A DNA stretch of 33,976 bases from an uncultured Dehalococcoidales bacterium (GTDB lineage: Bacteria; Chloroflexota; Dehalococcoidia; Dehalococcoidales; UBA2162): the NCBI GenBank assembly GCA_964583115.1, contig CAZOUZ010000002.1, positions 1 to 33,976 of the forward strand, in the 5' to 3' direction. Every line of letters begins with the position of its first letter. Position 1 is the stretch's first letter. Positions 2,599 to 25,021 of the stretch are shown here, piece after piece. Below the pieces are notes generated by a model. The model was not told the DNA's origin, did no database searches, and was given only the letters and a program-made list of their open reading frames with translations. The translations under genes and the position numbers were made by a program.

Positions 2599-3191
2599 AA
2601 GTCCGCTCCCTTCGACCACCTCGGCTGAGTGAAGCCGAGAAAATTGCTCAGCAGAGCGTGACCGGCCTCGGTCATTATAGACTCCGGATGGAACTGCACC
2701 CCCTCGACCACGTAGTCCTTGTGCCGGATACCCATCACCACGCCGTCTTCCGTCTCGGCAGCCAGCGCCAGCGACGAGGGAAGGGTCTCTTTTTTCACCA
2801 CCAGGGAGTGGTAGCGGCCCGCCTCGAAGGGATTATCTATACTTTTATATATCGTCCTGCCGTCATGATAGACCATCGAGCTCTTACCGTGAGTAGGGAC
2901 AGGAGCACGGACGACCTGCCCGCCGTAAACATAGCCGATACACTGGTGTCCCAGGCAGACGCCGAGAATGGGAATCCTCCCGGCAAAACGCCAGATAACA
3001 TCGTTGGAGATACCCGCCTCGAGCGGCGTGCAGGGTCCGGGAGAAATGATGATGTGCGACGGTCCCAGGCTCTCGATTTCGTCAAGGATTATGCTGTCAT
3101 TACGATAGACAGCCGGTTCCCAGCCCAGCTCTCCCAGGTACTGGGCGAGGTTATAGGTGAAAGAATCGTAGTTATCAACGATTATTACCAT
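2595..3191 (-). CDS. pabA: Aminodeoxychorismate/anthranilate synthase glutamine amidotransferase component II
   Basis: Class I GATase triad context is present: GVCLGHQ (Cys) and VQFHPES (His/Glu). It is about 198 aa and sits 2 nt downstream of pabB. Confidence 0.9.
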   Translation of the reverse strand: MVIIVDNYDSFTYNLAQYLGELGWEPAVYRNDSIILDEIESLGPSHIIISPGPCTPLEAGISNDVIWRFAGRIPILGVCLGHQCIGYVYGGQVVRAPVPTHGKSSMVYHDGRTIYKSIDNPFEAGRYHSLVVKKETLPSSLALAAETEDGVVMGIRHKDYVVEGVQFHPESIMTEAGHALLSNFLGFTQPRWSKGADL

Positions 3192-3193
3192 AT

Positions 3194-11065: not shown

Positions 11066-11125
11066 TATCATTGCGAATCCCGATTTTATCGTGGACGAAG
11101 CAATATATATGAATAAATATCTCTT

Positions 11126-11279
11126 GAGATTGCTTCGTCGCTTCACTCCTCGCAATGACAATTATATTAGATTACTGTCATTCTGAGCCCCGATGAAATC
11201 GAGGGCGAAGAATCTCGGGGTGGGAGAACGATACACATACTCCACTTCCCCGAGATCCTTCGCTACGCTCAGGATGACA
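11126..11279. repeat. Three copies of a 32-45-nt GC-rich repeat family in alternating orientation within an AT-rich spacer. Copies B and C form a ~104-nt imperfect hairpin.
   Basis: Copy A spans 11126-11160; its reverse complement reads TGTCATTGCGAGGAGTGAAGCGACGAAGCAATCTC. Copy B spans 11176-11220 (TGTCATTCTGAGC[16-nt insert]GCGAAGAATCTCGGGG). Copy C spans 11248-11279; its reverse complement reads TGTCATCCTGAGCGTAGCGAAGGATCTCGGGG. B pairs with C over 13 + 16 bp, with one G.U and one mismatch. Confidence 0.6.
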
Positions 11280-11314
11280 AAATGTAAAAATATATAGACA
11301 GCGATGAAATTTAA

Positions 11315-12715
11315 ATGATAATTAAAAACACGGACACACTGACTTCTCACGGCAACACGGCGGGCAGGCGTATTGTTCTTGACATAATGGAGGCAGGACT
11401 CGCCGCGCCGGACCCGTATGAGAACACGAAAAAGATAGCCCGGCTCGAGGGTGAAAAACTGGTCCTGGGCAACCCGCAACTCTCCGACCCGCCGGGCCAG
11501 GAACCAGTCGAGTACGCCCTTAAAGACATAAGGAACATATACGTAGCCGGCGGAGGAAAGTCGGCACAGAGAATGGCAAAAGGGCTCGAAGACGCCCTTG
11601 GAGACCTGATAACAGACGGACAGGTAAACGGCAAGAAAGGGGAGCAGGTACTGCTGAAACGTATTCCCGTAACCCTTGCCGGGCATCCCATCCCCGATGA
11701 AGACAGCGTTAAAGGCTCCGCCAGGATTCTGGAGATAGAGAAGAGCGCCAGGGAAGGCGATATCGTCTTCTGGCTGAATTCGGGAGGAGGTTCCGCCTTA
11801 CAGGCTTTACCGGCGCCCGGAATATCCCTGGAAGATTTGCAGGAGATTTACCGGATACTCTACTTCGGCTGCGGTGCCAGTATGCCGGAAGCCAATGCGG
11901 TAAGAAACCTGATTACCGTTGTCAGAATGAAGCACGCCAAGCACGTTAAAGGCGCCACCCTGGTCCAGCTTATGACAACCGAACTGCCCCTGAAACTGCG
12001 CGGGCATATGTTTTTTGAGGAAGCTTTCAGCAGTGAATACGAGCGCGCCATACACGTCCTGAAGAAATACGAAATCTGGGAAAAGGTGCCGGCTTCAGTC
12101 CGGACCTTCCTCGATAAAGCCGACCCGGAATACCTGCACCCCACACCCGGGGAGTTCGCCCAGAGACCGTACTATGTCTTCCGGGTAATGGGGCCCGAGT
12201 ACCTGTTGAATGCGGCTAAAGCCAGGGCGGAGGAGCTGGGACTGAATACAACCGTACTCGCCACCAGCCTGAACGACGTCGAAGCAAAACCCACCGGAGA
12301 AATACTCGCCGATATCGCCCAGGAGGCGGAAGTGCTGGGAAGACCGCTTGAGCCTCCCTGTGTTTTCCTCTGCGGCGGTGAGGTGGTGGTGCCAATCGGG
12401 GAGGAAACCGGGTTCGGGGGACGGAACCAGGAGCTTGTCCTGGCGGCAGCGCCGCGAATAGCCGGCAGCAAGAATACAGTCATCGGCTCGGTTGATTCCG
12501 ACGGGACGGACGGGCCGACGAACGTCGCCGGCGGTATAGTCGACGGTTATACGGCGGAAAGAATCCAGCAGGCAGGGTTCGACCTCGCCGAAGAACTTAG
12601 AAGACACAATTCGAGTCCCGTCCTGGAGGCAATAGGCGACACCATAATGACCGGAAACACGGGCAACAACGTCAGGGACCTCAGGGTAGTTTACGTCGGA
12701 AAACCCCAACCATAA
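11315..12715 (+). CDS. Glycerate 2-kinase / hydroxypyruvate reductase-like protein (DUF4147 + MOFRL family)
   Basis: The C-terminal MOFRL hallmark is present: CGGEVVVPIGEETGFGGRNQELVLAAAPRIAG...SVDSDGTDGPTNVAGGIVDG. The N-terminal part is typical of the TtuD/GckA family. Confidence 0.85.
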   Translation: MIIKNTDTLTSHGNTAGRRIVLDIMEAGLAAPDPYENTKKIARLEGEKLVLGNPQLSDPPGQEPVEYALKDIRNIYVAGGGKSAQRMAKGLEDALGDLITDGQVNGKKGEQVLLKRIPVTLAGHPIPDEDSVKGSARILEIEKSAREGDIVFWLNSGGGSALQALPAPGISLEDLQEIYRILYFGCGASMPEANAVRNLITVVRMKHAKHVKGATLVQLMTTELPLKLRGHMFFEEAFSSEYERAIHVLKKYEIWEKVPASVRTFLDKADPEYLHPTPGEFAQRPYYVFRVMGPEYLLNAAKARAEELGLNTTVLATSLNDVEAKPTGEILADIAQEAEVLGRPLEPPCVFLCGGEVVVPIGEETGFGGRNQELVLAAAPRIAGSKNTVIGSVDSDGTDGPTNVAGGIVDGYTAERIQQAGFDLAEELRRHNSSPVLEAIGDTIMTGNTGNNVRDLRVVYVGKPQP

Positions 12716-12747
12716 GATAAACAAAAAGCGTTGCCCGCACCTTACAC

Positions 12748-12763
12748 CCCGGTGAAGGCACCG
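12748..12763 (+). terminator. Small hairpin (CCGGTG-AAGG-CACCGG) downstream of the glycerate kinase gene; weak candidate terminator
   Basis: It has a perfect 6-bp stem followed by ATTTCTC. It sits in the 67-nt convergent spacer between 12715 and 12783. Confidence 0.3.
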
Positions 12764-12782
12764 GATTTCTCCATCTCCGTAT

Positions 12783-13964
12783 CTAGCCTCCGAGACCGGG
12801 GGCATTTCCGGTATACGGGTTCGCTTCCGCCAGTTTTTCGTTAAGCTCCACGCCGAGCCCCGGCTTTGTCGGGGGTATTATATACCCCTCTTCCCACCGG
12901 ATAGGCTCGCTGAGAATCTCGGCATAGAACCCTCCCCAGGTCTCTATGCTCTCCTGAATCAGGAAATTGGGACTGCAGGTATCGACGTGAATATTGGCCA
13001 GGGCTTCTATCGGGCCGGCGTACAGATGCGGGGCTATCTGCGCATAATGCGCCTCAGCCATTCCGGCTATCTTCTTGGCTTCGAGAATACCGCCTACGCG
13101 CCCCAGGGCAAACTGGAGGATAGAAGCCGCCTGTTTATCCAAAAGCTCCCTGAACTCGTATTTCGTCGAAAGTCTTTCGCCGGTGGCAATCGGGATACTG
13201 GTGTGACGGGCTACCCGCGCCATCTCATCCCGGTTCTCCGGCGGCACCGGCTCCTCAAACCATAGAGGGTCGTACTTCTCTAATCTCTTGGCCAGCCTTA
13301 TTGCGCTGGAAGTAGTCATCTGACCATGTGTACCGATAAGTATATCGCACTTATCTCCAACTGCTTCTCTTACGTTTTCGACCACTTTTTCAGCAGCCTC
13401 CAGGGCTTCCATAGTTACCTGAATCGGAGCTATGTAGCCGATCAGTTTTATCGGATCGAATTTTATGGCGGTGAAACCTAATTTCAAATAATGGGCTGCC
13501 CTTTCTCCGGCTATTTGTGGGTCACCCTGCGCTCTACGCTCTGGATCGGGGTCATCATCATCTTTCGGGTATAAATAGGTATAGCTCCTGAGTTTTTCGT
13601 GATACTTGCCGCCGAGCAGGTTATAGATGGGCTGGTTCAGGGCTTTGCCGATGATGTCCCAGCAGGCTATTTCAAACCCGCTGATTATCCCCATCTTCGT
13701 CAGGTCAGGGTGCTGGTCGTAACCGCTGGCATAGATTTTGCGCCACATCGTCTCTATCTGAAACGGGTCGGTATCAATCACAAACTGTTCGGCGACGCTC
13801 CGGATTAACTTCACTACCACCTGCGGGTCGAAGGGTACGGCATAGGCTTCACCGATGCCTTCAATCCCATCGTCGGTAATAAGTTTAACGAACAGCCATT
13901 TCCCTCCCCCTCGACTGGGCGGGGGATTTGCCACCAGATATGTCTTCAGGTCAACTATCTTCAT
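12783..13964 (-). CDS. Mandelate racemase/muconate lactonizing enzyme family protein, galactonate/gluconate-dehydratase-like acid-sugar dehydratase
   Basis: It aligns by eye to E. coli DgoD along its whole length: MKIVDLKTY..., FEIACWDIIGKAL, LWFEEPV, IATGERL, IAGMAEA, IAPH, KPGLGVE. The SD is GGAGGTG. The MR/MLE signature D-x-H reads G-T-H here. Confidence 0.88.
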   Translation of the reverse strand: MKIVDLKTYLVANPPPSRGGGKWLFVKLITDDGIEGIGEAYAVPFDPQVVVKLIRSVAEQFVIDTDPFQIETMWRKIYASGYDQHPDLTKMGIISGFEIACWDIIGKALNQPIYNLLGGKYHEKLRSYTYLYPKDDDDPDPERRAQGDPQIAGERAAHYLKLGFTAIKFDPIKLIGYIAPIQVTMEALEAAEKVVENVREAVGDKCDILIGTHGQMTTSSAIRLAKRLEKYDPLWFEEPVPPENRDEMARVARHTSIPIATGERLSTKYEFRELLDKQAASILQFALGRVGGILEAKKIAGMAEAHYAQIAPHLYAGPIEALANIHVDTCSPNFLIQESIETWGGFYAEILSEPIRWEEGYIIPPTKPGLGVELNEKLAEANPYTGNAPGLGG

Positions 13965-13994
13965 CTTTCACCTCCATTATGAATATTACTTCTG

Positions 13995-14672
13995 TCAATC
14001 ATTTTTCTTTATAGCAAAGCAGACCGAACTGTTGTTCTCGGGATTCGTTTTAAAAATATTCACTTCCTGCCGGGCAGTATCAATCATTTCGGCGGCTTCC
14101 GGGTCACCGTCATATTCGGCCTGTGCCCTGGCTATCAGCTTTTCGAGAGGAGTGATATACTCGTCCCGCCAGGTATCGGTATCCAGCAGGAAATAGTCTA
14201 TCAGTTCATAACCGCAGCCGGATATTATTTTCAGTTTCTCTTCGATATTGCCCTGGGCATCGTGCAAGAGAATATAACCACCGGACCTGAGAAAGCGCTT
14301 CCACTCTTCCAGACCTTTCTCGAAACCGATTGCGTATACCGAGCCTTCGGCAAGGATGATATCGAAGCTTTCATCCGGGAAGTCCATATCGAGGGTAGAG
14401 CGCTCGATTACCTTGATTCTATCCTCCAGGCCTTCCTCCCCGACATTCTTCCGAAGCACGTCCAGCATTTCCCGGTCGATATCGATACAGGTTATTTCGC
14501 AATCGACCGACTTCGCCAGCTCCACGGCTGACACACCGGACCCGCAGCCCGCATCAAGAATCTTCGGCCTGTCCATCGGCGGAATTATCCGGAAAGACTT
14601 CTGCGTGTACTTGAAGAGCCGCCTTCTTACCCCGTCCTTCTCAGCCTGGAACCAGGCCTTTCCGCCCTGCAT
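13995..14672 (-). CDS. Class I SAM-dependent methyltransferase
   Basis: Motif I is ILDAGCGSGVSAVELA, followed by an acidic post-I residue (CIDID) and motif II/III context (FDIILAEGSVY). The SD is GGGAGGGTG. Confidence 0.85.
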   Translation of the reverse strand: MQGGKAWFQAEKDGVRRRLFKYTQKSFRIIPPMDRPKILDAGCGSGVSAVELAKSVDCEITCIDIDREMLDVLRKNVGEEGLEDRIKVIERSTLDMDFPDESFDIILAEGSVYAIGFEKGLEEWKRFLRSGGYILLHDAQGNIEEKLKIISGCGYELIDYFLLDTDTWRDEYITPLEKLIARAQAEYDGDPEAAEMIDTARQEVNIFKTNPENNSSVCFAIKKND

Positions 14673-14902
14673 TTCACCCTCCCGTATCTCTCACTTTCAC
14701 TAATGTATATGATACGCTTTTGCAGCCCGTAGATGTCAATACCTTGCGCCCGCCCGGACACAGAGCCATCAGCCGCTATTTAATATTTACCGCCTATCTG
14801 ATACACTCTAGGGAAACGCAGTTTTCCACAATTCGACAAGCTACCGGGCTGCCGTAATTAAATCTTTAAAACAGGGCAAACTCCGGGAAAGGGAGGGTAA
14901 AG

Positions 14903-15706
14903 ATGAAGAAAAATCGACTCCGGGAACTACTTAATGAGGGCAAGCCGACTCTTGGCACCCACGTCCTGTCCCCCTGGCCGGGCATCGTCGAGGTAATCGG
15001 CTACTCCGGCGCCTTCGATTACATCGAGTACGTCGGCGAATATTCCTCCTTCACCCTGGAGCAGTTGGACAATTTCGGCCGCGCCGTGGAGCTTTTTCCG
15101 GATATGTCGGCGATGATGAAGGTAGAGGAGCAGACCAGAGGATTTATTGCCACCCGGGCAATCGACTCCGGCATCCAGAACGTTCTCTTCACCGATTGCC
15201 GCTCCGCGGAAGACGTCAGGGAGTGTATTCGCTACGTCAGGGCAGAAACGCCTGAAGCCGGCGGCGTTCACGGCTACGGTATGCGGCGGAGTATCGGCTA
15301 CGGCGGTTATCGGTCCGGGAACACGCTTGAGGAATGGACGAAGGCAATGGATAACGTCGTTATCGCTATAATGATTGAGAAAAAAGGGGCAATGGAGAAC
15401 CTGGAAGAGATTCTCTCCGTAGAAGGCGTGGATATGGTCCAGTTCGGACCTTCCGACTACTCGATAAGCATCGGCATGCCGGGGCAGTCGCAGAGCGCCG
15501 AGGTCCAGGGCGCCCACCGGCGGATGATAGAGCTTGCCCTGGGAAAAGGCGTCCACCCCCGGGTGGAGGTTGGCAGCTTCGAGCAGGCAAAACCGTTCGT
15601 TGAAATGGGAGTCCGCCACTTCTGCATCGGCTGGGACACGGGAACAATCGCCCAGTGGTGCCGGCAGCAGGCGGAAGGAATGGCCGGACTGCTTCCCCGA
15701 AAGTAA
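14903..15706 (+). CDS. HpcH/HpaI family aldolase (2-keto-3-deoxy-acid aldolase, GarL/HpaI-like)
   Basis: The family layout is present: N-terminal LRELLNEGKPTLGTHV, metal-binding region IAIMIEKKGAMENLEEI and VQFGPSDYSISIG. It is about 267 aa. The SD is GGGAGGG. Confidence 0.85.
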   Translation: MKKNRLRELLNEGKPTLGTHVLSPWPGIVEVIGYSGAFDYIEYVGEYSSFTLEQLDNFGRAVELFPDMSAMMKVEEQTRGFIATRAIDSGIQNVLFTDCRSAEDVRECIRYVRAETPEAGGVHGYGMRRSIGYGGYRSGNTLEEWTKAMDNVVIAIMIEKKGAMENLEEILSVEGVDMVQFGPSDYSISIGMPGQSQSAEVQGAHRRMIELALGKGVHPRVEVGSFEQAKPFVEMGVRHFCIGWDTGTIAQWCRQQAEGMAGLLPRK

Positions 15707-15736
15707 GTAACCCGGTCAAAACGAGAAGGAGAAAAG

Positions 15737-16723
15737 ATGTCAAAACAGAAGGTCTTTGTAAGCCGCATAATAGCCCGGGAAGCGCTGGACAAAATCGCCG
15801 GTGCCGCCGAGATGGAAGTCTGGCAGGAGGGACTGCCGCCGCCTTACGAGATTCTTCTCGAAAAAGCCCGTGAGGCTGACGGGCTGCTGACACTGCTGAC
15901 CGACCGGATGGACGCCAATTTGATGAGCAATTCGCCCAACTTAAAGGTAATAAGCAATATGGCTGTCGGCTACGATAATATCCAGGTCGAAGAAGCGACA
16001 AAACACGGCATTGTCGTCGGCTACACTCCGGGAGTACTCACCGAGACAACCGCCGATTTTGCCTTCACCCTGCTTATGGCTGCCGCCAGGAGGGTGGTCG
16101 AAGCCGACGGCTACACCAGGCAGGGGAAGTGGAAGACCTGGGAACCGATGGTACTGCTCGGTCACGATATCAATCACGCCACGCTGGGCATAATCGGCCT
16201 GGGGCGCATCGGCAGCGGGCTGGCAAAGCGGGCAAGAGGCTTCGATATGAAGGTAATCTACTACGACAGCGTCAGACAGAGCCGGGAAGAGGAGACCGGG
16301 CTTGACATCGAGTATGTCCCCGAACTGCCGGCGCTGCTTTCGAGGTCCGATTTTATAAGCGTCCACGTCCCGCTTACCCCGGAGACCAGTCACCTTATCG
16401 GTGCGGACGAGTTCGCAAAAATGAAGCCGACAGCCGTCTTTATAAACACCTCGCGCGGTCCGGTAGTCGACCAGCAGGCACTATATGAGGCGCTCAAGAC
16501 CGGCGAGATTTTCGCCGCAGCCATAGACGTTACCGAGACCGAACCGATACCCCCCGACGACCCCCTTCTCACCCTGAGCAATATCATTATTGCCCCTCAT
16601 ATCGCCAGCGCCAGCTTTCCGACACGCACAAAGATGGCCCTGATGGCTGCCGAAAATCTCCTGTCCGGACTGCGAGGCGAACCGCCGCCGAACTGCGTCA
16701 ATCCCGAGGCACTGAAAAAATAG
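15737..16723 (+). CDS. D-isomer-specific 2-hydroxyacid dehydrogenase (glyoxylate/hydroxypyruvate reductase-like)
   Basis: The NAD-binding motif is [16 protein letters not shown]. The catalytic Arg/Glu/His contexts are [16 protein letters not shown] and APHIASAS. It starts 30 nt after the aldolase gene with an AAGGAGA SD. Confidence 0.9.
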
Positions 16724-16844: not shown

Positions 16845-17735
16845 CTACCTCATCGACAGGTGCTCGGCGGCGAGAGAAATCACCACGAAGATAAAGGGTC
16901 TCTCGACCTTGGTAACCGTAAGAGGTATGTGGACGAAGTTTCTCGGGCAGGCGACCGCCGCCGGAGTATTTATTACGTGTTTCTCCTTTTCCTTGCCCAG
17001 GCAAATCTCGGCTTCTCCCCCCAGCTTGCTTAAATCATCGGTATCTGTCCCCATAAACAGCAGCACTTCCTCAAAAGCGTGGGCATGCGGGGTATAGGGC
17101 GCAAAACCGAACCGGTAGGGTGCCTTCACGCTTTCATAGGAAATATGGAGGTCCAGCCCGGTCTCACTGCCGGGGACATAGGTTATCACTCCCCCCGAAT
17201 CATCCGGGGAGTCCGGGCGGTAGTAATAAGCCCCCTTCCGTCTGAAAGAGAGCTTTTGAACCTTATCTTTATATTTTATGCCGGTCGTCTCAGCCTGCCC
17301 CCTGTCCGAAGTCAGCCTCTCCGAGACCTTCCACTCTCCCGCCAGTGAAACAGCCATCGATATAAACCGCTTATCGAGTCTGGTGATTTCCGCCGGGAAA
17401 TGGGCGAATCCGGCAGGAAGGACCACCGCCGTCGGCGTGTTGATTATCTGCTTTTCCTTTTCCTCGCCCAGGCACAGCTCGATTTCCGCGCCCAGCTCCA
17501 GCAGGTTGTCCATATCGGCTCCCATAAAAAACAGAAGCTCATCGAAATCATGCACATGCGGCTCATAAGGCTCTTTACCCATCTTGCCGGCTTCCCGGTA
17601 GGTGCCGTAGGTAATGTTGACGTCCAGCCCGCAGAGGAATTCGCCGTCCATCCTGACGCCCTGCCGGTAAAAGCCCGGCCCGTAATCCTGAAAAGTGAGT
17701 TTTTTAATGTATTCCCCGTATTTCGTCTCTGCCAT
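16845..17735 (-). CDS. Uncharacterised two-module cupin (bicupin-like) protein
   Basis: There are two tandem modules, each with cupin motifs: PHVHDFDELLFFMG...LPAGFAHFP and PHAHAFEEVLLFMG...CPRNFVHIP. The N-terminus is MAETKYGEY. The SD is GGAGGA-CAAAA-ATG. Confidence 0.85.
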   Translation of the reverse strand: MAETKYGEYIKKLTFQDYGPGFYRQGVRMDGEFLCGLDVNITYGTYREAGKMGKEPYEPHVHDFDELLFFMGADMDNLLELGAEIELCLGEEKEKQIINTPTAVVLPAGFAHFPAEITRLDKRFISMAVSLAGEWKVSERLTSDRGQAETTGIKYKDKVQKLSFRRKGAYYYRPDSPDDSGGVITYVPGSETGLDLHISYESVKAPYRFGFAPYTPHAHAFEEVLLFMGTDTDDLSKLGGEAEICLGKEKEKHVINTPAAVACPRNFVHIPLTVTKVERPFIFVVISLAAEHLSMR

Positions 17736-17783
17736 TTTTGTCCTCCAACATTCGCTACATATATGGAAACACCCGGGTCTGCT

Positions 17784-18182
17784 TCACCGGGTCTGGTCGG
17801 TCAGTGAAACGACGAAACAAACGTAAGGCTTATCGATTTTCCTTGTCACTATCGGACAGTGGGGCATTCCTTTCGGGACTACAATTACGGTGGGAACATT
17901 GAATACGTGTTTCTCCTCTTCTTCGCCCATAGACATCTCGACTTCCGCCCCGAGCTCATCAAAGCTATGAGGGTCGGTGCCGATAAAAAATATGGCTTCA
18001 TCGAAATCATGGGTATGCGGTTTCACTGATTTGCCGGTAATACCTGTTTCGTAGGCACAGGCATAAATAACCTGGGCATTGAACCCGTTCATAACTTTGG
18101 AGTTTACGGAAAACAAAGGCCCCTTGCTGCCCTTAGCAAAAGGTATGGTTACAAAACAGTCACCGTATTTTGTCTCTGCCAT
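17784..18182 (-). CDS. Uncharacterised single-module cupin protein, paralog of the bicupin modules
   Basis: Cupin motifs PHTHDFDEAIFFIG...VPKGMPHCP are present. I prefer the ATG at 18180-18182 (MAETKYGDC...), which has a GGAGGA SD 8 nt upstream and matches the paralog N-termini, over the track start at 18203. Confidence 0.85.
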   Translation of the reverse strand: MAETKYGDCFVTIPFAKGSKGPLFSVNSKVMNGFNAQVIYACAYETGITGKSVKPHTHDFDEAIFFIGTDPHSFDELGAEVEMSMGEEEEKHVFNVPTVIVVPKGMPHCPIVTRKIDKPYVCFVVSLTDQTR

Positions 18183-18223
18183 TAATAATATCCTCCCTCT
18201 CAATCATTCGGGTGAATTAACCT

Positions 18224-18252
18224 ATTTTGTGCTGGCAGCCTGCTATTGTCAA
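18224..18252 (-). promoter_or_regulatory. Candidate promoter of the cupin operon 18182->16845 (TTGACA-17-CAAAAT, minus strand)
   Basis: On the minus strand the sequence reads TTGACA (plus 18247-18252), a 17-nt spacer, then CAAAAT (plus 18224-18229). This lies about 40 nt upstream of the ATG. Confidence 0.4.
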
Positions 18253-18285
18253 GCTCCGGCAATCTCAGGCTTCGCCGGAGTAAAG

Positions 18286-18411
18286 ATGATTGCCCTGATG
18301 ACACCGGAAGGCTTTGCCAGGCTGATGGGCACGATGTGGCCGGAGTTAATCGACGCTATGCCCTTCGGCATGGGGCCGATGATTGACTACCTGCGGGGGA
18401 AAAAGCCGTAA
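18286..18411 (+). CDS. Candidate small ORF (41 aa, MIALMTPEGFARLMGTMWPELIDAMPFGMGPMIDYLRGKKP), function unknown; possibly a gene remnant
   Basis: The ATG at 18286 is preceded by GGAG-TAAAG. It lies in the otherwise unassigned 214-nt gap between the cupin start and the Lon stop. An in-frame GTG at 18229 would add VLAACYCQAPAISGFAGVK. I recognised no homology. Confidence 0.2.
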   Translation: MIALMTPEGFARLMGTMWPELIDAMPFGMGPMIDYLRGKKP

Positions 18412-18417
18412 CCGTCA

Positions 18418-20868
18418 TCAGGCTTCAGACTGCTCATCATTATTGCCGGTATCTTTATTTTTGTCTTTTTCCTCGCTCCTGGAGAAATCCCTGAGTTTCT
18501 CAGCCAGAGTTACCAGGCGTTTTTCCACCCTGCCGTTAACAGAATCAGGCTCAAAGCTGCCGTCTTCCAGGCGTTTGCCCGCCTTTATACCGGTAAGGAC
18601 TTCGATTCCCTCATCGACGGTGGTTACCGGGTAGATGTGGAATTTTCCAGCCTCGACCGCCTTAACAACCTCTTCCTTGAGCATCAGGTTTCTGACGTTG
18701 CTGGCCGGGACAAGGACTCCCTGGTTCCCGTTCAGCCCCTTAGCCTTGCATACCTCGAAGAAGCCTTCTATCTTCTCGTTCAGCCCGCCGATTGCCTGCA
18801 CGTCCCCCTTTTGATTGACCGAGCCGGTAACGGCGATACCCTGCTTTATCGGCGCTCCGGCAAGGCGGGACAGAAGGGCGTAAAGCTCAGTACTCGAGGC
18901 GCTGTCTCCTTCTACCTCCTCATAGCTCTGCTCAAAAACAAGGCGGGCGGACAGCGACAACGGCATATCCTGGACGTACTTCTCCGTCATATAACCGTTC
19001 AGTATCATCACGCCCTTGGTGTGGAGTCGCCCCCCCAGTTTGGCTTCCCTCTCGATATCAATCAGTCCCTCTCTGCCGACGCCGACGCTGGCTGTTATCC
19101 TGGAAGGCTTGCCGAAGGCAAAATCCCCGAGGTCTATCACCGCTAGGCCGTTCACCTGTCCCGCCCTCTCCCCGTCAGTGTCGATAACAATCATTTCCTG
19201 CCCAATCATCTCATTGATGCGCTGCTGGATTAAATTGGAACGGTACACCTTCTGTTCTATCGCCTTCTCCACGTGCCTGGCTTCTATAAGGGACACGCCT
19301 TCCTCTCCCGCCCAGAAGCTTGCCTCACGGATAATATCGGCGATATCGGCAAACAGCGTGGACAGTTTTTCCTGGTCGCCGGCAAGCCGCGAGCTGTGCT
19401 CCATAATTTTAGCCAGGGCATCGTTCTTCAGGTGCTTCAGGTCTTCTTCCTGGCACATCCGGCAGATTACGGCGGCATAGTCTTTCAGGTTACCCTCCGT
19501 CTTATCCATACGGCTGTCAAAATCAGCTTTAATCTTGAATAACTCCTTGAACTCAAGGTCCATCCTCAGCAGCAGGTAGTAAAACATCGGCTCGCCGATT
19601 ACCACCACCTTTATATCCAGGGGAACGGGTTCCGGTCTCAGGCTCTTCATTGCCAGGAAGCCCATCCGCTCACTTATCTCCTCAATAGTAAGGTTCCCGT
19701 CGCGAAGGGTCCTTTTCAAGCCGTCCCAAGACTGGTAGTTCGCCAGCAGGTCCTCAATCCTCATCACCAGATAGCCGCCGTTAGCACGGTGCAGGGAGCC
19801 GCTTCTTATCATCGAGAAGTCGGTATAGGAAGCGCCGAACTGGGCTTCCTTCTCGATGCGACCGAACAGGTTGTTAAAGGTAGGATTAAGCTCCAGGACC
19901 ACCGGGGCACCTTTTAACTCGGAATTATCAACCAGGAGGTTGACTTCGTATTTTTTAAGCGCCTGTTTCCAGGCCATATCTTTCATCGCCGCCAGGGGGT
20001 CCGAAGCCTGGGCCTGCTGCGGCTCGGACTTAAACTGCTCGAAGTTCTCAACGATGTCCTGCTCGACCTCGGTCAGGTAACCAACAACCTGCGGCAGTTC
20101 CCGGTACTTATTCCTCATTTCGTCGAAGAGGTGACCGATAGAATAGCGGGCTACCTCGCGGTCGGTCTCCTCAAGCCGCTCGTTAATAGCGCTCTCGTCA
20201 CCTCTCAGACCGGTTATCTGCTCTTTCAGCTCTTTTGACAGTTCTTCCTGTTTCTTTCTTAATGTCTCTTTATCTTCAGCGCTTAACTTTTTATAGTCCT
20301 CCTCACCCATCGGCGCGCCTTCCGAGGCAGGCAGAAAAACCAGGCCCACCGGGGTATTCTGAAGAATAAACCCGTTATCTTCAGCCTTCCTGCTCAGCGC
20401 ATTAAAAACGGCTTCTCTCTTTTTATTTAATTCCGAAGTTATTTCTTCCCGCCTTGCGGCGTATTCCTTGCTGGCAAATACCTGGGCAAGACTCCGCCTG
20501 GCGTTATCGGTGAGGTGGCTCACATCTTTCTGCAGGTCCTGTCCCTTACCCGCCGGTACCTCCAGAGCCCTGGGGCAGTAGGCATCCTTAAAGTTATGGA
20601 CGTAGCACCAGTCGGGAGGAACTTCCTTCTTCGCCGCCCTTGCCTCCAGAAAAGACTTAATCGCCGTAGTCCTGCCCGTCCCCGACGGTCCAGAAACATA
20701 AATGTTGAATCCCTGCTTGATAATACTCAAGCCGAAATTCAGGGCGCTCAACGCCCGCTCCTGTCCGATGATTCCCTCCATCGGACTCAGGTCAACAGTC
20801 GAATCGCAGTTGAACATCGCCGGGTCGCACCGGTGCCTCACCTGCTCCGCTCTCAGTTCTTCAGGCAT
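18418..20868 (-). CDS. Lon-like protease of the LonC/YcbZ type (AAA-like domain with a long helical insertion + Lon S16 protease domain)
   Basis: The C-terminal half closely resembles E. coli YcbZ and the Lon proteolytic domain: GQVNGLAV, GKPSRITA, EVEGDSASSTELYALLS (catalytic Ser) and GGLNEKIEGFF (catalytic Lys). The N-terminus has a P-loop-like GPSGTGRTT. A ~200-aa charged coiled-coil-like insertion is present. The SD is GAGGAGGT. Confidence 0.9.
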   Translation of the reverse strand: MPEELRAEQVRHRCDPAMFNCDSTVDLSPMEGIIGQERALSALNFGLSIIKQGFNIYVSGPSGTGRTTAIKSFLEARAAKKEVPPDWCYVHNFKDAYCPRALEVPAGKGQDLQKDVSHLTDNARRSLAQVFASKEYAARREEITSELNKKREAVFNALSRKAEDNGFILQNTPVGLVFLPASEGAPMGEEDYKKLSAEDKETLRKKQEELSKELKEQITGLRGDESAINERLEETDREVARYSIGHLFDEMRNKYRELPQVVGYLTEVEQDIVENFEQFKSEPQQAQASDPLAAMKDMAWKQALKKYEVNLLVDNSELKGAPVVLELNPTFNNLFGRIEKEAQFGASYTDFSMIRSGSLHRANGGYLVMRIEDLLANYQSWDGLKRTLRDGNLTIEEISERMGFLAMKSLRPEPVPLDIKVVVIGEPMFYYLLLRMDLEFKELFKIKADFDSRMDKTEGNLKDYAAVICRMCQEEDLKHLKNDALAKIMEHSSRLAGDQEKLSTLFADIADIIREASFWAGEEGVSLIEARHVEKAIEQKVYRSNLIQQRINEMIGQEMIVIDTDGERAGQVNGLAVIDLGDFAFGKPSRITASVGVGREGLIDIEREAKLGGRLHTKGVMILNGYMTEKYVQDMPLSLSARLVFEQSYEEVEGDSASSTELYALLSRLAGAPIKQGIAVTGSVNQKGDVQAIGGLNEKIEGFFEVCKAKGLNGNQGVLVPASNVRNLMLKEEVVKAVEAGKFHIYPVTTVDEGIEVLTGIKAGKRLEDGSFEPDSVNGRVEKRLVTLAEKLRDFSRSEEKDKNKDTGNNDEQSEA

Positions 20869-20965
20869 AACCTACCTCCTCATCGAAGCTTGAACGTACA
20901 ACATACAATGTAAGGAGTATTATATATCATAAGGAAAAGTTACGTCACTCTTAAATATGGTTCTG

Positions 20966-21196
20966 TTTGCATTTGGTTGAATGAAGTGCTCTCCCTCTTT
21001 ATCCCCTTCTCAAACGGTTCCCCGCTTTACTGGGCGATTACTTATCTGTTTGAAAGGGGGAGATATTGTTGAGAGGGAACTCCGCCCCCTCTCTTTATTA
21101 CACCCCTCTCCAGCCAGGAGAACTCTCCATTCAATAGCAATGGTTCCGGCTGGAGAGGGGTCAGGGGTGAGGTAAATAATATCAACCAGATGCAAA
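20966..21196 (+). other. 231-nt multi-hairpin element closed by a 15-bp long-range stem; candidate structured ncRNA or MITE-like repeat
   Basis: TTTGCATTTGGTTGA (20966-20980) pairs with TCAACCAGATGCAAA (21182-21196), giving 15/15 if one G.U is read on the plus strand. Three internal hairpins are present. The first is 21003-21015/21048-21060 (13 bp, one G.U, one mismatch). The second is 21071-21077/21087-21093 (7 bp). The third is 21103-21115/21148-21160 (perfect 13 bp), with two mini-hairpins in its loop. Confidence 0.4.
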
Positions 21197-21263
21197 TATA
21201 CTCATATCCTGGATTTGGACATGATTTTTCAAATTACGCGTTCCGTAACTCTTTACAATCCCA

Positions 21264-21292
21264 TTGACACCTTTTATAACAAACACTACAAT
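21264..21292 (+). promoter_or_regulatory. Candidate promoter of the SDR gene (TTGACA-17-TACAAT)
   Basis: A perfect -35 TTGACA lies at 21264-21269, followed by a 17-nt spacer and TACAAT at 21287-21292. This is about 40 nt upstream of the ATG at 21332, which has an AAGGAGGG SD. Confidence 0.5.
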
Positions 21293-21331
21293 CGGCTAAG
21301 AATAAACAGCATCTGATTCAAGGAGGGAATA

Positions 21332-22090
21332 ATGGATCTGGGTTTGAAAGACAGAGTGGCGCTGATAACCGGCGCCGGCAGCCGGATAGGGTTCGGCAGG
21401 ACTATTGCCCTAACCCTGGCAAAAGAAGGCTGCGATATAATCGTCAATGATATAAACCTCGATGACGCTCAAAAGACAGCAGAGGAGGTCGGGACTCTGG
21501 GACGCAAAGCCATCGCCATCAAGACCGATGTAACCAAGAAAGCCGAAGTGCAGGAAATGGTAAAGATGGGCCTTAAAGAATTCGGCAGGATAGATATACT
21601 GGTCAACAATGCCGGGGCTATCACCCAGGCGGGAAGCTTTGTCGACCAGAAAGAAGAGGACTGGGAAAAAGATATCGCCCTCAACCTCAAGGGCACCATG
21701 CTCTGCGCCCAGGCGGTGCTCCCCGGTATGCTTGAGAATCAGTACGGCAAGATTGTCAACATATCGTCCGGCACCGCCAAAATAGCCCACCCCGGCGTTT
21801 CCGCTTACGGCATCGCCAAGGGCGGCGTTATGGTCTTCACCAGGGGACTTGCCAAGCAGGTAATCGCGCAGGGAATAACCGTCAACAGCATCGCTCCCGG
21901 CTGGTCGCTGACAAATTTCATCAAGGGCGACAAAGAGGCTTTAAAGGAACGCTTCCTGCCGGAGACGCCGATAGGGAGGGGCACCGAGCCTCAGGACATC
22001 GCCAACACGGTCGCCTTTCTGGTATCGGACGTCTCCGCCGATATCGTCGGACAGGTCATCAGCGTCGACGGCGGCTCGACAATGCAGTAG
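21332..22090 (+). CDS. Short-chain dehydrogenase/reductase (FabG-like SDR)
   Basis: SDR motifs are present: TGAGSRIGFGR (cofactor-binding Gly-rich motif), NNAG, and the catalytic S...YGIAK (SSGTAKIAHPGVSAYGIAKGG). It is about 252 aa. Confidence 0.92.
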   Translation: MDLGLKDRVALITGAGSRIGFGRTIALTLAKEGCDIIVNDINLDDAQKTAEEVGTLGRKAIAIKTDVTKKAEVQEMVKMGLKEFGRIDILVNNAGAITQAGSFVDQKEEDWEKDIALNLKGTMLCAQAVLPGMLENQYGKIVNISSGTAKIAHPGVSAYGIAKGGVMVFTRGLAKQVIAQGITVNSIAPGWSLTNFIKGDKEALKERFLPETPIGRGTEPQDIANTVAFLVSDVSADIVGQVISVDGGSTMQ

Positions 22091-22114
22091 TCGGCTCACG
22101 GCAGCACCATCTAT

Positions 22115-23104
22115 TTATTTACCGCTTCCGGAATATAACCTGCCGGGTCCGGCAGTGAAATGAAAGAGCGGCCTGTCTATCCTGTTTATCTTCAGCGGAC
22201 AGTGCACCGTGCCGGCCGGAATAAAAGCCATGAAGCTTTTATCCATTACATTCTGCTCCCCGTCTATCCACAGCTCGACTTCCCCGCCCAGGTCGTGAAT
22301 GTCGTCCGGGTTGGTGCCGAAAAAGGCGATAGCCTCGCCAAAGGGATGCGTGTGAGGCGGCACCGCCTTATCTTCACCGGGTTCTGGCTCCGGCCTTTCT
22401 CCGGGCCAGAACCACAGGGCTTCGACATAAAAATCGGCGCCGGGGAAGACCTCGCTATCCAGGTAAACGATGCGGTGAGCGTATTCAGGGGGTATTTCGT
22501 GCCGGAACTCAGGAAGCACCAGGTCGGGTTTATCCTGAAAGATAAAATGATTGGCATATTGCTTTCCGGCGGTATTAACTTTTCCCGTGTTCCGCTGCTC
22601 TTTCGCAGTATCAGACAGATTAACTCCCTGATAACTCTGCCCCGGGCCCATAGTGAAGTGAAACATCGGCCTGTCCATTCTATTTATCTTGAGCGGACAG
22701 TGATTCATTCCCGCCGGGATGTAGGCAAGAAAGCTGTTGGTCATGATATACTGTTCGTCTTCCAGCCACAGCTCGACTTCTCCGCCGAGGTCATGCGGGT
22801 CGTCAAAGTTGGTGCCGAAAAAGGTGATAATCTCCGAGAACGGATGAGAATGACGCTGCGGTCCGCCCTCGCCTTTCTCTTTCTCTATCTGCTGCTCAGC
22901 AGTCTCCCGCCCAGGGAAGAACCAGACGCACTCGGAATAGAAAGCACCGGGGACGACCTCGCTGTCCATCCATATCACGTGGTTCATCGTGCGCTGTTCA
23001 CCGGGTTTCGGGACATTCAGCCTTTCCCCCGGCCTGAAACCGGGCAACCGTATATCCTTTTTCAGTTCCGTGCAAATGTATTTGCTGTGTTTCGATTCAG
23101 CCAC
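22115..23104 (-). CDS. Uncharacterised two-module cupin (bicupin-like) protein
   Basis: The two modules carry RHSHPFSEIITFFG...IPAGMNHCP and PHTHPFGEAIAFFG...IPAGTVHCP. The GTG start at 23102-23104 is preceded by GGGAGGT-AAAAAA. The N-terminus is (M)AESKHSKY. Confidence 0.85.
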   Translation of the reverse strand: MAESKHSKYICTELKKDIRLPGFRPGERLNVPKPGEQRTMNHVIWMDSEVVPGAFYSECVWFFPGRETAEQQIEKEKGEGGPQRHSHPFSEIITFFGTNFDDPHDLGGEVELWLEDEQYIMTNSFLAYIPAGMNHCPLKINRMDRPMFHFTMGPGQSYQGVNLSDTAKEQRNTGKVNTAGKQYANHFIFQDKPDLVLPEFRHEIPPEYAHRIVYLDSEVFPGADFYVEALWFWPGERPEPEPGEDKAVPPHTHPFGEAIAFFGTNPDDIHDLGGEVELWIDGEQNVMDKSFMAFIPAGTVHCPLKINRIDRPLFHFTAGPGRLYSGSGK

Positions 23105-23132
23105 TTTTTTACCTCCCTGAAAAACCGCTTTC

Positions 23133-24059
23133 CTATTCTTTCCGCCCGCTGATGCCGCTCTCTTCCCAGCCTTCCTTCATACTGCCGGTGCCGAGCATAA
23201 ACGCCATCTGTATATGCGGCCTGGTGAATTTCTTCCAGGTAAGCGGACCGTGCCGGGTACCCCCGGGCATAAAGATGCCTGTCGTGGTGTTAAAGGTGAA
23301 CGGCTCGCCCTCGACGCAGAACTCGATTTCGCCGCCGAGGTCTTCGGGATTATCCGGGTCACCACCCCAGTGCAGGACAATCTCATCGAAATTATGCACG
23401 TGCTCGTGGATATGGGGGTTCGGCTCGGGGATGCCGTATATCCAGCCCAACTCGATATAGTAGCTGGCTTCCGGCACCTGGGCGCTGCTCATATAGGTCA
23501 TCGTCGGACTCTGGCGGCCCTTAACTATGCCACCCGCCTCGCGAAGGGGCGCCCTTACCAGGTATTTTTCGTAGTCGATATCATCCGTTTTCTCCGGCAG
23601 ACCACCTTTTTCCGTCTTGATACCGCTGTCCCCCCAGCCTTCCTTCGGGTCGCCGGTGCCGAGCATTATTGCCATTTCAATATGGGGCTTGGTGAATTTC
23701 TTCCAGATTATCGGGCCGTGTCTCACGCCCCTGGGCACAAAGAGCGCCGTGTTCGTGCTGAAGGTGAGTGGTTGGCCGCCGACGTAAAACTCAATTTCGC
23801 CGCCGAGGTCTTCAGGATTTTCAGGGTCGCCGCCGATGTGCAGGACAATCTCGTCGTAGTTATGATGCACCATCTCGTGATTATGGGGGTTCGGGTCGGG
23901 TATGTCATATATCCAGCCGAACTCGATATAGTAGTTGGCTTCCGGCACCTGGGCGCTGCTCATATAGGTCATCGTCGGACTCTGGCGGCCCTTAACTATA
24001 CCGCCCGCCTCACGAATCGGTTTCCTGACAAAATATTTCCCGTAGTCGGATTCAGGCAT
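23133..24059 (-). CDS. Uncharacterised two-module cupin (bicupin-like) protein with very similar internal halves
   Basis: The two modules carry NHEMVHHNYDEIVLHIGG...VPRGVRHGP and IHEHVHNFDEIVLHWGG...MPGGTRHGP. Both contain the identical stretch GGIVKGRQSPTMTYMSSAQVPEA. The N-terminus is MPESDYGKY. Confidence 0.85.
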   Translation of the reverse strand: MPESDYGKYFVRKPIREAGGIVKGRQSPTMTYMSSAQVPEANYYIEFGWIYDIPDPNPHNHEMVHHNYDEIVLHIGGDPENPEDLGGEIEFYVGGQPLTFSTNTALFVPRGVRHGPIIWKKFTKPHIEMAIMLGTGDPKEGWGDSGIKTEKGGLPEKTDDIDYEKYLVRAPLREAGGIVKGRQSPTMTYMSSAQVPEASYYIELGWIYGIPEPNPHIHEHVHNFDEIVLHWGGDPDNPEDLGGEIEFCVEGEPFTFNTTTGIFMPGGTRHGPLTWKKFTRPHIQMAFMLGTGSMKEGWEESGISGRKE

Positions 24060-24098
24060 ATCGTAGAAGTCTCCTCTATGAATTCGGAATTAACAAAG

Positions 24099-24127
24099 AT
24101 TGTAACACCAACAGGCGATACCAGCAA
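24099..24127 (-). promoter_or_regulatory. Candidate promoter of the bicupin pair 24059->22115 (TTGCTG-17-TGtTACAAT, minus strand)
   Basis: On the minus strand the sequence reads TTGCTG (plus 24122-24127), a 17-nt spacer containing an extended-10 TG, then TACAAT (plus 24099-24104). Confidence 0.45.
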
Positions 24128-24187
24128 GTTTAGAAAGCGGACAGCCGTAATAGCGAATAACCTTGAGAAGGAGAGTGTTTTGCCCGG

Positions 24188-25021
24188 TCAGACGTGAGCG
24201 GCGAGCCAGGCTCCGATATCCCGGAAAACCTGTTCTCGCTCCGGCTCATTGAAAATCTCGTGGTAGAAACCTTCGTAAAGCTTCAGCGTCCTGTCCTCCG
24301 AGCCTACTCGTTCAAACAGCATCCGGCTGCCTTCGGGGTCGGACAGCCGGTCGTCAGCGCCGTGCATTATCAGCACCGGCAGCTTGATTTCCGGTATTGC
24401 GGAGGGCAGTTCCCGCGTAATTTTGATAAGCTCGGCGCCCAGACGGGCGCGAATCTTCCCTCTGTAAACAAGCGGGTCGTTCACGTAACCGTCCACCACA
24501 GCCCTGTCCCGGCTGAGGGTAGAGGCATCAAGAACGGTGGTGCCGGTCTTCGGCAGCAGCAGGGAGAGTACCTTCGCCATCGCCATCAGCGCCGGCGATA
24601 CGGTGGAGTCGATTTTCAGAGCCGCCCCGGAAAGCAGCAGCCCGGCAAGCCTGTCCTGATAACGGACGGCATAAGCAACGGCAATCGTTGCCCCCATACT
24701 GTGGCCGACGGGGAAGATTTTAGCCTGCTCATACTCATTTCTTATCATCCCGATAAATGTATCGAGGTCTTGAACATACTCGGAGAACCGCCCGACATAG
24801 CACCGCAAGCCTTCCGACCTGCCGTGCCCCCGCTGGTCAAAACCGTAGACAGCGTAACCTTTCGGCACAAAGTAGTCGACGAGGTTTGCATAACGCCCGC
24901 TGTGCTCGGCCAGACCGTGAACGACCAGCAATACCGCCTTCGGATTTGCCGGCGGCAGCCAGCACTGGTAATAGAGGTCAAGGTTACCGTATCCCCTGAA
25001 CTTACCTTCTCTATGCTCCAT
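24188..25021 (-). CDS. Alpha/beta hydrolase, lysophospholipase / monoacylglycerol lipase-like
   Basis: VVHGLAEHSGRY and the nucleophile elbow GHSMGA are present, along with the C-terminal HGADDRL and YHEIFNEPE typical of PldB/MGL-type enzymes. Confidence 0.88.
   Translation of the reverse strand: MEHREGKFRGYGNLDLYYQCWLPPANPKAVLLVVHGLAEHSGRYANLVDYFVPKGYAVYGFDQRGHGRSEGLRCYVGRFSEYVQDLDTFIGMIRNEYEQAKIFPVGHSMGATIAVAYAVRYQDRLAGLLLSGAALKIDSTVSPALMAMAKVLSLLLPKTGTTVLDASTLSRDRAVVDGYVNDPLVYRGKIRARLGAELIKITRELPSAIPEIKLPVLIMHGADDRLSDPEGSRMLFERVGSEDRTLKLYEGFYHEIFNEPEREQVFRDIGAWLAAHV

Follow-up and report, generated by a model that had tools for sequence, protein, structure and literature searches.

What four neighbouring cupin genes do in an uncultured Dehalococcoidales bacterium, and whether they form one system with the genes beside them, is the question raised by the stretch of DNA analyzed here (the window, 33,976 bp, which is the entire NCBI contig CAZOUZ010000002.1). 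A first-pass annotation of this sequence had described the four genes, here called A, B, C and D, as a dense paralog expansion containing seven copies of one module, and had proposed that together with a LonC-type protease, a short-chain dehydrogenase/reductase (SDR) and an alpha/beta hydrolase they make up a dedicated system. We found that the module is a cupin beyond reasonable doubt and that it belongs to no characterised cupin family. The proteins are an unnamed, fairly large family-level branch within the very well-known cupin superfamily; they do not amount to a system of a new kind. There is no wider system that takes in the protease and the hydrolase, and a cupin-cupin-SDR unit is partly conserved. 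All four open reading frames (ORFs) were confirmed as follows:

16845..17735, minus strand: gene A, ORF of 296 aa, two-module bicupin of the A/B subfamily
17784..18182, minus strand: gene B, ORF of 132 aa, single module, A/B subfamily
22115..23104, minus strand: gene C, ORF of 329 aa with a GTG start, bicupin, C subfamily
23133..24059, minus strand: gene D, ORF of 308 aa, bicupin, D subfamily

Seven copies of one cupin module

The module is ~130–160 aa long and the relatedness of its seven copies is clear from both motifs and alignments. With regular expressions we found H-x-H-x3-E-x5,6-G in six of the seven modules, LG[GA]ExE in all seven and P-x-G-x2-H-x-P in six. Cupin motif 1 (G-x5-H-x-H-x3,4-E-x6-G) is therefore present; of motif 2 (G-x5-P-x-G-x2-H-x3-N) the core P-x-G-x2-H is kept in six modules, and the flanking G and the terminal N are lost, the ending in the family being H-x-P. 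The two exceptions that had been pointed out beforehand are borne out. In the C-terminal module of A (PRNFVHIP) an Asn takes the place of the motif-2 Gly, and the first His in the N-terminal module of D (MVHHNYDE) is shifted by an insertion of one residue. The full His-His-Glu-His tetrad is found in both modules of A and of C. Eleven positions are invariant over the seven modules, i.e., the four canonical ligands, the two glutamates of LGGExE and structural Gly, Leu and Pro residues. By BLASTP all module pairs are significant (21 of 21, 43–228 bits). Identity between the modules of one protein is 42% in A, 54% in C and about 74–77% in D, compared with 21–40% between proteins, and the repeats are visible even in the DNA, where the halves of D are 77–86% identical over ~430 nt and those of C 73% over 219 nt; shorter stretches are common to A and B. 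The N-terminal tag that the first-pass annotation saw in the four proteins is real and conserved over the family (consensus MAxSKYxKYIVT). However, the second modules begin with the same element (DYEKYLVR, KQYANHF, IKYKDKV), which makes it a part of the module and not a tag.

Profile searches and structure predictions, both proposed as checks at the outset, agree that the module cannot be assigned to a characterised family. The only Pfam match was the generic Cupin_2 (PF07883), with 37.5 bits for C and 25.7 bits for D (the gathering threshold is 27.2 bits) and no match for A and B. Among 95 family members, 78 match Cupin_2 at E ≤ 0.01 and nothing more specific, and these matches span only profile positions ~25–56 of 70, the region of motif 2. 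NCBIfam gave no match for the four window proteins or for 25 diverse single-module relatives, and no close solved structure was found by sequence, the best matches in the PDB having E-values of about 0.002–0.003. The AlphaFold2 models are confident: that of D (alignment of 95 sequences) has two barrels with a mean predicted local distance difference test (pLDDT) of 93.3 and a predicted template modelling (TM) score of 0.91, and that of B (25 sequences) is a cupin barrel with a pLDDT of 90.3. Foldseek found hundreds of cupin matches in the PDB at E ≤ 0.001 for both. For D the best E-values belonged to MncA, the quercetinase YxaG and oxalate decarboxylase (TM about 0.5, identity ≤13%), and the best match normalised by target length was BacB (TM 0.69–0.71, 13–14% identity). 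For B the first eight matches were all chains of MarH (6j4d, 6j4b) or of the series 7eqk/7eu6/7eup/7euz/7f6x, with E about 1e-6, TM 0.60–0.74 and 20–24% identity, and the remaining cupins ranked below them with identities of ≤18%. The PDB title of this series is “non-heme iron epimerase/lyase” and we take it to be StnK3. The same two proteins came up when the family profile was compared with PDB sequences (6j4b first, E = 0.0024; 7eqk third, E = 0.031; ~55–60 residues aligned).

The family is sizeable. A word-indexed search with the seven-module alignment gave 1208 clusters at 90% identity (E ≤ 0.001), and an exhaustive HMMER scan over 1.84 billion representatives gave, in clusters at 50% identity, 1455 at E ≤ 0.001, 947 at E ≤ 1e-10 and 133 at E ≤ 1e-30. 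Members have either two modules (~280–360 aa) or one (~130–170 aa). Their source names are all “hypothetical” or generic cupin labels, those given automatically by the Joint Genome Institute (JGI) being “quercetin dioxygenase-like”, and the named hosts are metagenome-assembled genomes (MAGs) of Dehalococcoidales, Dehalococcoidia or Chloroflexi, or of Deltaproteobacteria. Outside Dehalococcoidia/Dehalococcoidales and MAGs of the sulfate-reducer type the family is nearly absent, and the closest homologues of the window are labelled partly as Dehalococcoidia and partly as Deltaproteobacteria. We found no paper on this family, including in the literature on cupins in Dehalococcoidia. Three subfamilies can be distinguished, typified by D, by C and by A/B. 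The A subfamily comprises 325 clusters at E ≤ 1e-10, of ~300 aa each, with no Pfam match at all; the closest homologue of C (P0001) is 69% identical. One C-type single-module member (P0254) has an N-terminal hydrophobic segment that resembles a signal peptide or membrane anchor, whereas the other members appear to be cytosolic.

The metal tetrad follows a particular pattern over the family. Among 251 two-module proteins it is complete in both modules of 95, only in the N-terminal one of 62, only in the C-terminal one of 68 and in neither of 26, i.e., at least one module has it in 225 of the 251, as do 34 of 36 single-module proteins, and it is invariant in 25 diverse single-module members. Such a distribution would be expected if a single active barrel were enough, leaving the other free to take on a structural role. 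The glutamates E80 and E82 (numbering of B) are each conserved in 425 of 539 modules. As to the origin of the two-module proteins, the halves of one protein are more alike than they are to the opposite halves of other proteins of the same subfamily (39.5 vs. 29.8% in A, 44.9 vs. 34.6% in C and 47.3 vs. 43.5% in D), and between subfamilies there is no positional signal separating N-terminal from C-terminal halves. Either the barrel was fused repeatedly or the halves were homogenised by conversion. The bicupins would thus not go back to a single ancestral bicupin, and their sequences suggest repeated re-duplication or gene conversion of the halves. In the window the halves of D are far above the D-type average of 47%.

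Linkage in other genomes

Three neighbours had been included in the proposed system, and their annotations were found to be correct by Pfam:

18418..20868, minus strand: LonC-like protease (LonC_helical, AAA_32, LonB lid, Lon_C), between the two cupin pairs
21332..22090, plus strand: SDR oxidoreductase, convergent with C and 24 bp apart from it
24188..25021, minus strand: alpha/beta hydrolase (Hydrolase_4)

We compared all ORFs of 64 D-type loci from species-representative genomes, together with C-type and A-type loci, with the proteins of the window and with each other. The 64 loci were retrieved with an alignment of 12 D-type sequences, and the patterns used (GWIYGIP...) bias the sample to the D type. 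The gene order LonC, B, A, dehydrogenase, aldolase, methyltransferase, MR/MLE enzyme was found on only one other contig, which is near-identical to the window (L005). Apart from it, no homologue of the LonC, the hydrolase, the 2-hydroxyacid dehydrogenase, the HpcH aldolase, the methyltransferase or the MR/MLE enzyme was present near family members (71 other loci), and the alpha/beta hydrolase was linked to the cupin family in none of 72 loci. We have therefore rejected LonC, hydrolase and cupins as one conserved system. The hydrolase is grouped with the downstream PlsY and DegV genes and looks like part of a lipid module.

What does recur is the accumulation of paralogs and the SDR. The dense expansion seen in the first pass is real, and multi-copy cupin loci were found again in 24 of 73 loci. 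In 14 of 64 loci the D-type gene had another family member, mostly a C-type bicupin or a single C-type module, at a distance of up to 1.5 kb, and genomes of Actinomycetes, Gaiellales, Bacillota and Thermodesulfobacteriota are among them. In 12 of 64 loci an orthologue of the SDR, 44–65% identical to that of the window, was no farther than 3.5 kb from the D-type gene. Counting all SDR ORFs at least 44% identical, 15 of 16 fell within 3.5 kb of a bicupin, a zone that makes up 46% of the DNA surveyed (binomial probability 9e-5, uncorrected for relatedness). The SDR is the only neighbour in the window whose orthologues recur beside family members elsewhere. The D-C-SDR arrangement is repeated in a Deltaproteobacteria MAG (L010: D, C, an SDR 65% identical, then a single C-type module) and in a Dehalococcoidales MAG (L024). 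Hence, from the dedicated system that had been proposed, the SDR and the D/C pairing stand in part, and the LonC and the hydrolase, linked only in the near-identical contig, do not.

Around these genes we found variable islands containing URO-D-like proteins (at least 13 loci), MarR, FMN reductase, zinc alcohol dehydrogenase (Zn-ADH), DUF169, aldehyde:ferredoxin oxidoreductase (AOR), old yellow enzyme (OYE)-like reductases, molybdopterin oxidoreductase, MmgE/PrpD, CoA-transferase, enoyl-CoA hydratase, class I/II aminotransferases and Liv-type ATP-binding cassette (ABC) uptake systems. The AORs are tungsten enzymes, and a NiFe hydrogenase is also among the neighbours of family members. Aminotransferases were near the D-type gene in two loci only (L012 and L013). 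Unrelated class I methyltransferases adjoin some D-type and C-type genes. In at least eight loci of the housekeeping type (see below) a class I S-adenosylmethionine (SAM) methyltransferase of ~240 aa lies directly upstream of the bicupin and divergent from it; it forms a cluster (c21) that is not orthologous to the methyltransferase of the window (13995–14672, three genes from A):

L003:9037-9765: cluster c21 methyltransferase
L006:8786-9448: cluster c21 methyltransferase
L032, L039, L041, L042, L044, L058 and L066: further members of cluster c21

Another ORF, of the UGSC family, adjoins D-type (L034, L035, L047) and A-type (L078) bicupins. It ends in a TGA that reads in frame, with no further stops, into an ORF of ~425–440 aa without Pfam match (...AVGD*GSCTKY..., ...GVGG*DGCSAS...), and from its sequence the pair looks like one selenocysteine-containing protein split by gene callers:

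L035:10976-11383, with the ORF downstream: UGSC-family ORF
L078:5298-5621, with the ORF downstream: UGSC-family ORF

In one further locus (L073:7020-9002) a close orthologue of the SDR was found beside a gene for a corrinoid (B12-binding) protein and genes for a URO-D-like protein, AOR, DUF169 and FMN reductase. These are the gene families that surround bicupins elsewhere, and their composition hints at islands for corrinoid-dependent methyl transfer of the O-demethylation type.

Within the window B lies 48 bp upstream of A and D 28 bp upstream of C, and B and A are probably co-transcribed. Strong Shine-Dalgarno sequences precede all four cupin genes. For B there is an alternative TTG start at 18203; we favour 18182 because of the start MAETKY, which is conserved in the family, and the ribosome-binding site GAGGGAGGA. 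The idea that both operons are equipped with promoters of their own fared less well. Upstream of D there was only TTGCTG-17-TACAAT (3/6 and 5/6), spotted by eye, and upstream of B one partial match:

18252-18224, minus strand: promoter-like site TTGACA-17-CAAAAT upstream of B, 10/12, a match to the consensus only

A consensus scan of the region gave 10 sites against 6.2 ± 2.5 in shuffled sequences, which is not above chance. The best promoter-like match of the region, TTGACA-17-TACAAT (11/12, 21264–21292, plus strand), is not ahead of the cupin genes; it is upstream of the SDR, divergent from LonC. Two long antisense ORFs, 22160–23152 (plus strand, 330 aa) and 23214–24197 (plus strand, 327 aa), cover C and D. 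The one opposite D looks conserved in other loci (cluster c26) only as the mirror of the conserved cupin gene, and shadow ORFs of this kind can mislead clustering based on ORFs. Rfam families and tRNAs were looked for in the window as a clue to a ligand and none was found.

Next to A and B the window contains, at 9770–16723, an enolase, a DUF4147/MOFRL protein (read as glycerate-kinase-like), an MR/MLE enzyme, a class I methyltransferase, an HpcH/HpaI aldolase and a D-2-hydroxyacid dehydrogenase, a gene set resembling a sugar-acid (glucarate/galactarate-type) route to pyruvate and glycerate. In the LonC-like protease the Walker A Lys is an Arg (GPSGTGRT), as is typical of LonC proteins with an inactive ATPase. 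Farther away (894–4636) is a folate/pABA set with a pterin-binding (dihydropteroate synthase-like) protein, a class IV aminotransferase, a glutamine amidotransferase and a chorismate-binding enzyme, the last three read as PabC-, PabA- and PabB-like.

A proposed reaction for the family and its alternatives

The function that we favour, at somewhat less than even confidence, is that of a cytosolic metal-dependent, O2-independent enzyme of strict anaerobes that isomerises, epimerises or tautomerises 2-oxo acids or carbonyl compounds like them. Metal binding, the type of chemistry and the class of substrate are what we infer here, beyond the repeats, motifs, fold, family distribution and linkage statistics themselves. 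Each module would form a jelly-roll barrel that holds one divalent metal on the His-His-Glu-His tetrad, and the two LGGExE glutamates, which would lie on the adjacent strand, would be candidate acid/base residues. The catalytic unit would be a two-barrel body, either a homodimer of single-module proteins (B) or a fused bicupin (A, C, D). A 2-oxo acid, or another enolisable carbonyl or alpha-hydroxy-carbonyl compound, would chelate the metal, a glutamate of LGGExE would take a proton off the adjacent carbon, leaving an enolate stabilised by the metal, and the proton would be returned elsewhere. The outcome would be isomerisation, epimerisation or tautomerisation, possibly a retro-aldol-type cleavage, with no need of O2 or of a redox cofactor. 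D-type and C-type proteins may act jointly, as a hetero-oligomer or in consecutive steps, and the SDR might reduce or oxidise an adjacent carbonyl or hydroxyl.

The proposal fits a carbonyl/2-oxo-acid context, given the 2-hydroxyacid dehydrogenase, HpcH/HpaI pyruvate aldolase and MR/MLE enzyme that adjoin A/B in the window and the SDR, Zn-ADH, aminotransferase with AOR, Liv-type ABC systems and MarR found elsewhere. The host labels of the 64 D-type loci are those of anaerobes (Dehalococcoidales, Desulfobacteraceae, Desulfatiglans, Syntrophaceae, Thermodesulfobacteriota), which together with the neighbouring tungsten AOR and NiFe hydrogenase argues against O2-dependent chemistry. We consider possible, if less probable, the bolder version in which the family is a new class of oxygen-independent metallo-cupins with an undescribed reaction, acting close to the core of carbon metabolism in Dehalococcoidia and, in catabolic islands linked to uptake, as D/C hetero-oligomers with a dedicated SDR. 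If true, these islands, several of them with the putative UGSC-family selenoprotein, might represent an anaerobic route, so far unrecognised, by which an organic acid or aromatic abundant in sediments is used.

Several observations weigh against the isomerase/epimerase proposal. Apart from the near-identical contig, no locus compared retains the 2-oxo-acid neighbours of A/B, and reaction type is notoriously hard to predict from the cupin fold. The similarity to MarH and StnK3 is remote (E = 0.0024; 20–24% identity), its Foldseek E-value being only about ten-fold better than those of many cupins of unrelated function, and the first conserved Glu of the family's ExE strand is an Arg in MarH. In the reverse test, three close orthologues of the SDR (71–75% identical) located in long contigs had no cupin neighbour, so that the SDR linkage is facultative; one of the three sits in the same kind of island. 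Moreover, in ~22 of the 64 D-type loci the gene is solitary and located in a fixed housekeeping neighbourhood of Dehalococcoidales, with FtsH, MoaE, polyprenyl synthase, MetRS, RsmI and an IMPDH-like gene upstream and an unknown gene of 264 aa, a NUDIX-like gene, a response regulator and Crp downstream (names mostly read from representative sequences, with Pfam run on a subset only). Such solitary copies would fit a core-metabolic role as well, e.g., that of a sugar-phosphate isomerase. They also bear on the alternative considered in the first pass, that the paralogs are scattered members of a common housekeeping family, which applies in part, since in many relatives single copies stand among housekeeping genes.

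Among the alternatives, the one that survives best, and which we still find unlikely, is a non-oxidative cupin that cleaves C-C or C-O bonds (a decarboxylase, a retro-Claisen/beta-diketone hydrolase or a lyase), with a role in degrading an imported organic acid or aromatic anaerobically; the SDR would then make or use up the carbonyl intermediate. Oxalate decarboxylase and MncA are among the best fold matches of the bicupin, the title of the 7eqk series includes “lyase”, and the catabolic islands with AOR, OYE-like reductases, CoA-transferase, enoyl-CoA hydratase, MmgE/PrpD, URO-D-like proteins, MarR and ABC uptake would suit such a role. However, identity to the decarboxylases is ≤14%, with TM ~0.5 and a root-mean-square deviation (rmsd) of 7–11 Å, there is no sequence match to them beyond a stretch of 33 residues, and no single catabolic pathway recurs around the family. 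One such pathway, that of phloroglucinol, with the SDR as phloroglucinol reductase and the cupin as the ring-opening enzyme, was dropped, as no support was found in the literature and no other genes of the pathway were found.

The solitary copies lead to a second alternative, a core sugar or sugar-phosphate isomerase (like the archaeal cupin phosphoglucose/phosphomannose isomerases, KduI or KdgF) standing in for a classical enzyme that Dehalococcoidia would lack. They are not restricted to the D type: a C-type gene of other Dehalococcoidales is located between SRP54 and an SbcC-like gene, and two A-type genes adjoin a small metallo-beta-lactamase-fold gene and an H+-pyrophosphatase. The gene set beside A/B resembles a sugar-acid route, and the phosphomannose isomerase of Thermococcus and KdgF appear among the fold matches, but rank below MarH/StnK3 with 10–16% identity. 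No NCBIfam isomerase model was matched by sequence, no sugar kinases or transporters recur nearby, and three to four paralogs per locus with a patchy spread over phyla would be unusual for a core glycolytic function, all of which makes this reading quite improbable.

Lower still we place an O2-dependent dioxygenase (quercetinase-, gentisate- or acireductone-dioxygenase-like) serving oxygen detoxification or micro-oxic catabolism. The tetrad of three His and one Glu is typical of cupin dioxygenases, the JGI names point in this direction, and YxaG is both a top fold match of the bicupin and the best PDB sequence match of C (E = 0.0033). Yet this last match is confined to a 33-residue stretch at motif 2 and weakens to E about 1 when the family profile is used, the host labels are those of strict anaerobes, and O2-sensitive tungsten and NiFe enzymes are encoded nearby. 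The least probable reading, by a little, is a non-enzyme, i.e., a possibly abundant protein that binds or stores metal or binds a small molecule (MncA- or seed-globulin-like), for which the top fold match of the bicupin, MncA, the strong ribosome-binding sites of the four genes and the 26 of 251 two-module proteins without a full tetrad could be cited, but the tetrad and the two additional glutamates are strongly conserved, there is no signal peptide, unlike in the periplasmic MncA, and the association of the genes with oxidoreductases and transporters speaks for catalysis.

Sediments, aquifers and peat are rich in Dehalococcoidia and related uncultured anaerobes, much of whose carbon metabolism rests on unannotated genes. 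A family with ~1000 clusters at 50% identity, often several copies per genome, nameless in Pfam and NCBIfam and sometimes in core-like synteny, is a recurrent gap in metabolic reconstructions of these organisms that an assigned reaction would fill, and the assignment could extend the range of cupin reactions by an oxygen-independent type. The family further offers a clear case of a barrel that forms homodimers and was fused, more than once, into a two-barrel protein. Uncharacterised cupin families are common, so that it is a worthwhile target and no surprise to the specialist.

Comparison with known cupins

The only model that covers part of the family, Cupin_2, is of superfamily level without functional meaning, and the A subfamily does not match it. 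Judged by sequence, the proteins do not belong to the DMSP (dimethylsulfoniopropionate) lyase, YxaG/OxdC or BacB groups. Cupin DMSP lyases (DddK/DddQ/DddW/DddL) have the motif 1 spacing H-x-H-x4-E-x-Y; all seven modules have three residues between the second His and the Glu and no Tyr at Glu+2, and DddQ was a low-ranking fold match of B. OxdC, YxaG and MncA share with the family the bicupin architecture and the metal site of three His and one Glu. However, they are O2-requiring or periplasmic proteins, ~50–70 residues longer, with 10–13% identity at the TM and rmsd values given above.

BacB (PDB 3h7j/3h7y/3h9a), from the bacilysin operon of Bacillus subtilis, is the nearest characterised relative among the bicupins. 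BacC of the same pathway is an SDR, and BacB was later reassigned as an isomerase. Like A, C and D, it has two fused cupin barrels each with a metal site (predicted in our case). The model of D has the two fused barrels, and both tetrads are present in A and C, with one shifted in D. BacB differs in being shorter (~235 aa) and in coming from an antibiotic operon of an aerobic Firmicute, and it was absent from the PDB sequence matches of C and of the family profile, i.e., the likeness is structural only. Its structure contained bound phenylpyruvate and two metal sites, it was called an oxidase, and the pathway also includes the oxidoreductase BacC (PMC2797259).

MarH and StnK3 act in the maremycin and streptonigrin pathways. 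Both have the cupin fold and epimerise beta-methyl-indolepyruvate, a 2-oxo acid, at C3, and their genes share a cassette with those of a SAM C-methyltransferase and a PLP (pyridoxal phosphate) aminotransferase (PMC4742848). No cassette of this kind is present in the window, where no aminotransferase adjoins A. These enzymes are monomodular, encoded in actinomycete antibiotic clusters, and lack the ~55-residue N-terminal extension (KYxKY start) and the DPxxPxDLGG insert of the family. With a similarity that is marginal, the cassette absent, an extra N-terminal segment and Glu in place of Arg on the ExE strand, our proteins would, on sequence, not be demonstrable members of the MarH/StnK3 family. 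What is shared includes a single cupin barrel of similar size, the pattern PH-x-H-x3-E ... P-A-G-x-x-H-C and the second Glu of the ExE strand, as the alignment shows (PHTHPVDE...GARIEVQLDG...RIPAGSEHCFLTL in the PDB match vs. EHVHDxDE...LGAEIE...FVPKGLKHCPLTL in ours), and redox-neutral chemistry on a metal-bound 2-oxo acid would suit anaerobes. By sequence profile and by fold, MarH and StnK3, remote as they are, are the nearest characterised relatives of the family, and they are enzymes of 2-oxo acids of the arylpyruvate type.

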